From the IMG/VR virus record IMGVR_UViG_3300020202_000015, positions 1 through 50,119 of that record: 50,119 nucleotides of DNA, one strand, 5' to 3'. Below are positions 40,531 to 41,178 of this stretch, in pieces (position 1 is the stretch's first letter; each line of letters begins with the position of its first letter). The position numbers and the translations under genes were made by a program. The DNA is from a virus (Duplodnaviria > Caudoviricetes). Below the pieces are notes generated by a model, which saw only the letters and a program-made list of their open reading frames with translations, was not told the origin of the DNA and searched no databases.

Positions 40531-41178
40531 TCATGTGTCACCAGCCGTTGCGCTGTCCGAAGTCACTTTGATCGCGCGCGCGATGAGCTGCGCCGCGTAT
40601 GTGCAGACGGCGTTGCCGAGCTGCTTACGTCGGTCCACCCAGGAGGGAAGCCCATCATCCGCTCCCAGTCTTCTGGGTGCAGAATCCCAAGACTCTGCAA
40701 ACTCTTTCGCCACCTCCCGACCCGGCCCGCACCACCACCGCGACAGCTTCCGTAGCTGCTCGCTGTCGGCGTGGGCAACAACGAAGACACGTCGTCGGAG
40801 ATGCTTTGCGCCAACTTCAAAGGCGGACAGTTGAAGAGGCACGCTGGCATACCCAGCCACGAATAGGCGGCTCCGCAGCTCGGGCACCCATCGTTTCCAC
40901 GTGTGCGCGACGTTCTCGACAACCAGCCAATCAGGTCGAACAGCAGCGAGCTCCTCGAGCCGGAGAGGCCGGTCCTCTTGCCAGCTACCGACAAGTCCTG
41001 ACACGGGAAGCCCGCAGAGATCACGAGCGTCCCGGTACGCAGGTACTCGAGGCCTGTGCTTGCCGAGCACGGCTCTGCATCCGTCGTCGATCTCGACGTA
41101 TGCAACAGGCTCGAATCCTTCTCGCTCGAATCCAACTGAAAACCCTCCGATGCCGGCAAAGAACTCGATGAGCTTCAC
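40531..41178 (-). CDS. C5 cytosine DNA methyltransferase, frame A (motifs I-III, VI, VIII, X)
   Basis: FFAGIGG, VEID, VVENV, HLRRRVFVV, LGNAV; no PC motif. Confidence 0.85.
   Translation of the reverse strand: MKLIEFFAGIGGFSVGFEREGFEPVAYVEIDDGCRAVLGKHRPRVPAYRDARDLCGLPVSGLVGSWQEDRPLRLEELAAVRPDWLVVENVAHTWKRWVPELRSRLFVAGYASVPLQLSAFEVGAKHLRRRVFVVAHADSEQLRKLSRWWCGPGREVAKEFAESWDSAPRRLGADDGLPSWVDRRKQLGNAVCTYAAQLIARAIKVTSDSATAGDT
40563..41159 (-). CDS. C5 cytosine DNA methyltransferase, nested frame B (motifs IV-V, TRD-like, IX)
   Basis: VISAGFPCQDLSVAGKRTGLSGSRSSLL, LLPTPTAS, ERMMGFPPGWT; start uncertain (TTG 41159 or GTG 41024). Confidence 0.75.
   Translation of the reverse strand: MPASEGFQLDSSEKDSSLLHTSRSTTDAEPCSASTGLEYLRTGTLVISAGFPCQDLSVAGKRTGLSGSRSSLLFDLIGWLSRTSRTRGNDGCPSCGAAYSWLGMPACLFNCPPLKLAQSISDDVSSLLPTPTASSYGSCRGGGAGRVGRWRKSLQSLGILHPEDWERMMGFPPGWTDVSSSATPSAHTRRSSSRARSK

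Follow-up and report, generated by a model that had tools for sequence, protein, structure and literature searches.

How can a C5 DNA methyltransferase be encoded when its conserved motifs alternate between two overlapping reading frames? This question is raised by a locus at positions 40531-41178, on the minus strand, of IMG/VR virus record IMGVR_UViG_3300020202_000015. The record, that of a soil phage, is complete (50,119 bp), has direct terminal repeats and a G+C content of ~60%, and is referred to in its entirety as the window. In none of the window's single frames do all of the C5 methylase motifs occur together. They are divided between two open reading frames (ORFs), and the reading we favor, with a probability of about 0.62, is that the locus specifies one C5 DNA methyltransferase made as two polypeptides, chain A and chain B, from these two almost fully overlapping ORFs:

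40531-41178, minus strand: ORF A (chain A), GTG start, 215 amino acids; the longest ORF extends to a TTG at 41193.
40563-41159, minus strand: ORF B (chain B), in frame A+1, nested wholly inside A and ending at 40563.

ORF A is the window's own protein in the protein database (P0001). Its frame contains FFAGIGG, EID, DARDL, ENV (40909-40917), HLRRRVFVV, and LGNAV (GNAV, 40606-40617), and motifs I-III, VI-VIII, and X were assigned to it. The Pro-Cys dipeptide of the catalytic motif IV does not occur in the frame A translation of 40531-41178. Frame B reads TLVISAGFPCQDLSVAGKRTGLSGSRSSLLFDLIG, in which PCQ occupies 40998-41006, followed by LLPTPTASSYG and then by EDWERMMGFPPGWT as motif IX. Chain B is laid out as a poorly conserved leader, motif IV-V, a four-cysteine (Cys4) knuckle, a target-recognition domain (TRD), and motif IX. 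Along the DNA, the motif order is A-B-A-B-A: I-III in frame 0, IV-V in +1, VI-VIII in 0, TRD-IX in +1, and X in 0. The five segments and the Cys4 motif are as follows:

41029-41178, minus strand: segment 1, motifs I-III (FFAGIGG, EID, DAR); frame A selected, frame B an unconstrained Ser-rich leader.
40920-41036, minus strand: segment 2, motif IV-V (TLVISAGFPCQDLSVAGKRTGLSGSRSSLLFDLIGWL) with the Cys codon at 41001-41003; frame B selected, frame A a linker.
40774-40929, minus strand: segment 3, motifs VI-VIII (ENV ... HLRRRVFVV) in frame A; the conserved Cys4 motif is read from these bases in frame B.
40632-40784, minus strand: segment 4, TRD and motif IX (LLPTPTASSYGSCRGGG ... EDWERMMGFPPGWT); frame B selected, frame A two predicted helices linking VIII to X.
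40567-40629, minus strand: segment 5, motif X helix (RRKQLGNAV...); frame A selected.
40827-40886, minus strand: Cys4 motif CPxC-x11-C-x3-C in frame B, a possible zinc knuckle, overlapping A's conserved HTW.RWVPELR in motifs VI-VII.

Profile searches divided the locus in the same way. Using Pfam, PF00145 matched frame A over profile positions 2-43 (54.1 bits) and frame B over 64-98 (32.5 bits), both above the cut-off of 22 bits. In a six-frame scan of the whole record, profile positions 2-43, 64-98, and 100-167 fell in alternating frames. Similarly, positions 54-107 of PHROG 363 aligned to A and positions 118-153 to B. A profile built from 58 B-type proteins, defined below, matched residues 70-105 of M.HhaI (E = 1.4e-8) and, weakly, residues 272-294. 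Judged by these alignments, chain B corresponds to the catalytic strand and loop of M.HhaI joined to the motif IX region, and chain A corresponds to the rest.

Is the arrangement a property of the virus or of one assembly? Logan contigs from two soil-metagenome runs matched positions 40300-41400 with 0 differences and 0 gaps (word depths of 27 and 8); both runs may be the source sample, such that the assemblies are independent and the sample is not. The same five-segment mosaic was present in 10 other contigs (L098, L013, L014, L019, L179, L182, L183, L184, L185, and L187), whose identity to the window's A or B was ~49-75% in the locus searches. At the protein level, 86 of the 120 matches to A listed lacked PCQ, and 71 of these were full-length A-type proteins with motifs I, VI, VIII, and X. 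Among the 119 new matches to B listed (besides P0083, which was listed again), 56 had PCQ, PTPTA, and motif IX without I, VI, or X. Two further B-type proteins, flagged as 'VIII+' by chance, were added to the alignment by hand to give 58. These censuses used our own regular expressions and misclassified some rows, and the A-type and B-type counts are of protein clusters called as ORFs by gene callers. A preliminary description of the locus, made from its sequence, had divided the motifs between frame A, without a PC, and a nested +1 frame B, in the order A-B-A-B-A with both frames open, and had argued that two compensating sequencing errors were not the cause. All of these features are present on the minus strand, the order and the openness are conserved in the 10 other contigs, the re-assemblies contain no indels, and the split recurs in the 71 A-type and 58 B-type clusters.

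To locate selection, the genes were aligned by codon and pairwise differences were counted at each codon position, using 5 loci and then 11 loci, with the same result. Over motifs I-III, the most variable position was A's third. In the stretch that starts ~6 codons ahead of PCQ and stops just short of ENV, it was A's first position, which is B's third; around PCQ, the variation was 0.51 at this position versus 0.07 and 0.07 at the other two (11 loci). The pattern was mixed over motifs VI-VIII. From the TRD to motif IX, A's first position was again the most variable (0.23 versus 0.07 and 0.05; 11 loci), and at motif X it was A's third. The wobble variation thus changes frame at all four junctions. 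Residue conservation in the 71 A-type and 58 B-type proteins alternates at the same places, being much higher in A than in B at A residues 15-48 and much higher in B than in A at A residues 135-156. Residues F7, G9, G11, G12, E88, N89, R128, R130, G188, N189, and A190 are invariant in the A-type proteins. P44, C45, and Q46 are invariant in 58 of 58 B-type proteins, as are C84, C87, C99, and C103 of the Cys4 motif. The catalytic hallmarks are therefore all invariant, each on its own chain.

Both frames have also been kept open, to a degree beyond chance. In the 11 related loci, frame A contains no stop anywhere and frame B contains none in the 1464 codons from motif IV to motif IX, versus 83 stops in 2298 codons of the third frame. 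This extends to the segments in which the motifs lie in the opposite frame: segments 2 and 4 (947 codons) contain no stop in frame A and 45 in the third frame, and segment 3 (517 codons) contains none in frame B and 14 in the third frame.

How would chain B be translated? Its start is likely the TTG at 41135, which yields a protein of 190 amino acids and is where P0121, the database's own call for the window's ORF B, begins. The signals are as follows:

41133-41148, minus strand: proposed signals for initiating chain B, with a candidate ribosome-binding site (GGAGGG, 41143-41148, formed by the Gly-Gly codons in motif I) and, after a spacer of 7 nt, a TTG (41133-41135).

The arrangement GGAGG(G/A)-N7-TTG also occurs in L098, L179, L183, and L185. 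All 11 loci have a B-frame start upstream of motif IV; in 8 of them it is a TTG 13 codons in, and in the other 3 an ATG next to the start of A. L013 and L014 show a Shine-Dalgarno sequence, then a GTG or TTG as a weak start for A and, 4 nt further on, the ATG in frame B. We infer from these elements that chain B is initiated separately, in the window from the ribosome-binding site and TTG. The preliminary description had instead proposed an internal GTG at 41024. That codon exists but is not conserved: codon 50 is GTG in 5 of the 8 loci numbered like the window, and L014 has GTT there. A start at this position would also cut into strand beta4. It was rejected as the start of B, and the upstream TTG at 41135 fits better.

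The two chains were modeled singly using AlphaFold2 (AF2). Chain A alone was modeled as a C5 methyltransferase large domain with a predicted local distance difference test score (pLDDT) of 78.8 and a predicted template-modeling score of 0.77, and matched M.HaeIII, 3g7u, and M.HhaI with a Foldseek probability of 1.0. Its residues 55-71, where beta4 and the catalytic loop are expected, were disordered (pLDDT below 50), and residues 139-163 were helical (pLDDT above 90). Chain B alone was unfolded around motif IV; its residues 81-110 had a pLDDT of 75-84. Co-folded, as the preliminary description had suggested, A and B gave a median score of 0.86 (0.86, 0.83, and 0.86 in the individual runs) versus 0.00 for the best of 3 controls. 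The three runs had at least 85% of contacts in common, with a partner pLDDT of at least 64. The interface comprises B 35-45 (TLVISAGFPC), A 1-7 (beta1), and A 77-91 (a helix and beta5 with ENV), and the lowest-error contacts are between B's motif IX (157-163) and A's motif X helix (184-194). The geometry of the modeled complex is that of a canonical C5 methylase, a result that speaks to compatibility of the chains, not to their binding.

Based on these data, the following enzyme can be proposed. Chain A would be the Rossmann-type large domain, carrying the S-adenosylmethionine (AdoMet) motifs I-III, motifs VI-VIII, and the motif X helix, without beta4 and the catalytic loop. Chain B would supply beta4 with the Pro-Cys nucleophile, the Cys4 knuckle, a short target-recognition region, and motif IX. 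The chains would interdigitate to form an M.HhaI-like enzyme: the TLVISAGFPC strand of B would enter between beta1 and beta5 of A, and motif IX of B would pack on A's motif X helix. Other phage orphan methylases suggest, by analogy, that this enzyme may methylate some target sequence and so protect the phage DNA from restriction.

What is new here, relative to known two-part methylases? The comparisons are with excerpts of two papers (PMC2836561, PMC3404938). According to these, M.EcoHK31I (YGGCCR) is a two-polypeptide C5 methyltransferase whose beta chain is encoded in another frame within the alpha gene; beta has motif IX, alpha has motifs I-III, VI-VIII, and X, and activity requires both chains. 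The window agrees with this in that ORF B lies within ORF A, in the +1 frame, and has motif IX. The likeness is to the published layout of M.EcoHK31I. As described, alpha of M.EcoHK31I also has motif IV and the TRD, whereas in the window these are on the nested chain. Since the Pro-Cys loop and the TRD-like PTPTA lie on that chain, the window's active site would be built from both chains, which interleave along the fold four times in the window versus twice in M.EcoHK31I. M.AquI and the engineered split forms of M.HhaI, M.SssI, M.BspRI, and M.BsuRI work as two non-covalently assembled fragments (PMC3404938). In the excerpts, these have one cut, in or near the variable region, with N- and C-terminal pieces encoded consecutively. 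None of the split enzymes listed there has motif IV on a chain other than that of motifs I and VI, as the window does. What the preliminary description had stated of M.EcoHK31I and M.AquI agrees with both papers, as far as the excerpts go. In the open-access literature, we found no report of a C5 methyltransferase whose motif IV is carried by a nested or separate chain, and none of an overlapping alpha/beta methylase layout in phages. An unsplit form does occur: the metagenome contig L028 (Ga0099851_1032588) shares the hallmarks of the subfamily, PHLRRRV (VIII), WPTP repeats, LMGWPVGWTE (IX), and GNGVVPQ (X), but has all motifs in one frame, in one ORF of ~400 amino acids.

The simpler M.EcoHK31I-like layout was found in annotated phages. 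Frame A aligned end to end, with 30-33% identity over 92-97% of its length, to six genes annotated as phage 'DNA methylase', encoding proteins of ~230-260 amino acids. The records are Mycobacterium phages Rhynn (gp83) and Hades (gp69), Lacticaseibacillus phage R9.2, Microbacterium phage vB_MoxS-R1 (gp29), Bacillus phage yong1, and Sulfitobacter phage phiGT1 (gp51). In 6 of 6, frame 0 has motifs I, IV (GGFPCQ), VI, VIII, and X, and the +1 frame has (W/L)PTP.A ... LMGFP.GW (TRD and motif IX), with GNAV back in frame 0. These methylases thus keep GGFPCQ in frame 0, which the window does not, and share the second half of the mosaic. An overlapping beta coding sequence is annotated in 0 of 6, each record having the frame-0 coding sequence only; as annotated, therefore, these methylases lack motif IX. 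The six genes, each with a long +1 ORF, are as follows:

L004, 1501-2214: 'DNA methylase' gene with an unannotated +1 ORF.
L006, 1507-2220: 'DNA methylase' gene with an unannotated +1 ORF.
L005, 1516-2301: 'DNA methylase' gene with an unannotated +1 ORF.
L189, 307-1047: 'DNA methylase' gene with an unannotated +1 ORF.
L190, 304-1059: 'DNA methylase' gene with an unannotated +1 ORF.
L191, 292-1029: 'DNA methylase' gene with an unannotated +1 ORF.

When the related loci were classified by regular expressions, again with some rows misclassified, this plain alpha/beta layout (TRD +1, IX +1, X 0) was counted in 14 genes from 13 loci, and 4 more loci had IX in +1 and X in 0. The +1 frame is open for 157-312 codons even at a G+C content of 39-50%, where the third frame has 20-35 stops. 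The M.EcoHK31I-like overlapping layout thus appears, from these sequences, to be widespread and unannotated in phages. This qualifies the preliminary description of the window as a more extreme split: the placement of motif IV in the nested frame is indeed the new part, whereas TRD-IX in +1 with X in 0 is family-wide, of a known kind, and not special to the window. The Cys4 motif is not present in more distant beta chains, such as that of Rhynn. A DNA-level search of phages with the locus gave no match, and a tblastn search of frame B against annotated phages gave none at E <= 1e-3, which is uninformative because the conserved pieces are short. A scan of genome contigs gave one short match, in a Saccharibacteria metagenome-assembled genome (L017), that is probably spurious.

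Further partitions of the motifs were also found. L007 has motifs I-III joined to TRD-IX in one ORF and motifs IV-VIII and X, with a C-terminal extension, in an overlapping ORF:

L007, 2001-2648 and 2081-2776: the two overlapping ORFs, on the same contig as L015 and L186.

Among the matches listed, 22 protein clusters (e.g., P0191-P0222) have motif I with TRD-IX and no PCQ. The database protein P0238 has motifs I-V joined to a long TRD-IX chain, without VI-VIII and X, and may be a further layout, an error, or a product of decay. It is an even bet, in our view, that these belong to a frame-mosaic family in which two overlapping ORFs (0 and +1) are both translated to make one enzyme, and modules hop between the chains through compensated frameshifts at loops. 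Four partitions would then have been seen: beta holds TRD-IX, and alpha holds I-VIII and X (many phages); B holds IV and TRD-IX, and A holds I-III, VI-VIII, and X (the window's clade); I-III and TRD-IX are on one chain, and IV-VIII and X are on the other (L007 and the 22 protein clusters); and P0238 is a single case.

A quick tree built on the VI-to-X core that the proteins share placed 71 of 71 A-type rows inside one clade of 85 rows with a Shimodaira-Hasegawa-like approximate likelihood-ratio support of 98. Rows without ENV or GN[AS] were left out and 42 of the 105 inner branches were unresolved, such that only this clade was used. Since all A-type rows lie in one supported clade, the tree fits a single old origin of the A type, kept since. 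Plain alpha proteins fall outside the clade except for P0070, which lies inside and probably resembles the ancestor. Compared with P0070 and other relatives, the window's clade has ~8 residues fewer before motif IV, and its PCQ-to-ENV stretch is 95 nt versus 120-132 nt in relatives (~9 residues shorter). The mosaic may have originated from an M.EcoHK31I-type layout, with alpha carrying I-VIII and X and beta carrying TRD-IX in the +1 frame. The catalytic module would have passed into the beta frame through a pair of out-of-frame changes on either side of motif IV that compensate each other, with a net loss of 25 nt between IV and VI among them.

Could the locus instead yield a single chain? Ribosomes might start in frame A and shift +1, -1, +1, and -1 at some or all of the junctions to make one colinear methyltransferase running from motif I to X. 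In favor of this, the segments under selection run exactly colinear with an ordinary C5 methylase (PHROG 363; M.HhaI 70-105 and 272-294), and the wobble in segments 2 and 4 shows chiefly frame B to be selected. Two database proteins, P0083 and P0091, have a B-type leader and motif IV in frame with VI-X through a short link (...SSLMFALTWVVVENV), such that a direct IV-to-VI join is possible as an ORF. Each is nested within the clade as a lone variant beside normal members and may be an error, a case of recent decay, or a further layout. We nevertheless consider recoding unlikely. Inspection of the four junctions in 5 loci turned up no X XXY YYZ slippery heptamers, no conserved homopolymers, and no in-frame stops; the junction sequences were little conserved, and four serial shifts would multiply inefficiencies. 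At junction 1, DAR, the end of motif III, and TLVIS, which is beta4, share bases. Going by the architecture of M.HhaI, a crossover would be needed there, and the shifted chain would have hardly any beta3-beta4 connector. Two chains require open bridges, which a recoded single chain would not, and the frames have been kept open; frame A is both open and predicted to be helical in segment 4 (pLDDT above 90). In M.EcoHK31I, silently removing the beta starts from the alpha gene abolished activity, and expressing alpha and beta from separate plasmids brought it back (excerpts of PMC2836561). The preliminary description had offered either a two-chain enzyme or programmed frameshifts. The absence of slippery sites in the 5 loci, the B starts in 11 of 11 loci, and the co-fold score of 0.86 versus 0.00 favor two chains.

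Might the two chains be conserved for something other than methylation? Chain A, as an AdoMet-binding scaffold, and/or chain B could act in DNA binding, in regulation, or as an anti-restriction decoy, or only the M.EcoHK31I-type parts might matter. The complete active site is on neither chain alone, the helix between motifs V and VI is ~9 residues short, and a model of the complex cannot show catalysis. Still, F-x-G-x-G-G, E-N, R-x-R, and G-N-A are invariant in the 71 A-type proteins and P-C-Q in the 58 B-type proteins, and such hallmarks across the clade are hard to explain without catalysis. The wobble pattern further indicates purifying selection on motif IV in frame B. Loss of methyltransferase function thus also seems improbable.

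An artefact or a dying gene, with the frame of an ordinary methylase broken by indels in assembly or by recent frameshift mutations, would be the default expectation when motifs fall in two frames of a metagenome-assembled record, but it is effectively refuted: sequencing or assembly error is ruled out by the two identical gap-free re-assemblies and by the same frames in 10 other contigs and dozens of protein clusters, whose 45-77% identity excludes copies of one sequence, and a pseudogene by the clear selection in both frames, the 0 stops in either used frame versus 83 in the third, and the invariant catalytic residues.

Several points weigh against the two-chain enzyme itself. Frame A stays open in the B-selected segments partly as a by-product of B's conserved codons and of common ancestry, such that the stop counts overstate independence. 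The in-frame join in P0083 and P0091 means that a chain crossing from B to A at junction 2 is not structurally absurd. The complex score may reflect only likeness to solved single-chain C5 methylases. Of 80 solved complexes, 58 attained this mark, as did 2 of 110 mismatched pairs; these counts hold only roughly, because split-fold pieces tend to pass and our own alignments were used. The position of the chain B start differs between loci, the B-frame leader of L183 contains a stop, and no RNA run was among the sequencing runs listed for the locus. Finally, the short PCQ-ENV stretch makes helix alphaD unusual under any model.

If the chains of the two-polypeptide enzyme assemble as proposed, this would be the first natural C5 methyltransferase with the catalytic Cys strand on a different polypeptide from the AdoMet pocket, ENV, and R-x-R. 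The chains would be threaded four-fold and both encoded on the same 650 bases. It would also be a ready-made, naturally optimized split methyltransferase; split enzymes are sought as tools for targeted methylation (excerpts of PMC2836561). The locus would provide a clear example of dual coding over a long stretch, ~570 nt, long kept in many phages, and a testable model for how compensated frameshifts repartition modules between overlapping genes. Should the frame-mosaic family be real, a Rossmann-fold enzyme tolerates its central catalytic strand in trans, and overlapping-frame coding is a heritable, evolvable route to interdigitated heterodimers. There would also be a gap in annotation: in short phage 'DNA methylase' genes, those of well-studied mycobacteriophages among them, the beta ORF appears to be unannotated, and without beta the enzymes should be inactive.

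Other possible overlapping or split arrangements were noted among the loci. At L011 2125-2643 (also in L012), a single-chain methylase of 357 amino acids with all motifs in frame 0 is accompanied by a 172-amino-acid +1 ORF over motifs III-VIII. This ORF matched PHROG 16143 'DNA methyltransferase' (E = 1.5e-8), had no Pfam match, and may be another overlapping gene. In ~20 loci within L030-L143, of the FAGVGG...PQRRRRV type (e.g., L100, L103, and L104), the first GNAV lies 574-1024 nt past motif VIII in frame +1 or +2 in the regular-expression census. These might be sequentially split, M.AquI-like methylases or merely neighboring genes.

In the window, an ORF of 50 amino acids with a hydrophobic core (MTFKVETGMRVVSYVLAGIGGYLLIRAAG...) lies at 40382-40534 on the minus strand. 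It had no match in PHROG, and its ATG overlaps the TGA stop of ORF A (ATGA), a sequence arrangement that suggests translational coupling. The window also has two integrase-like genes on the minus strand, at 42486-43307 and 35752-36909, which matched PHROG 1 with E values of 1.4e-52 and 3.7e-32, respectively.

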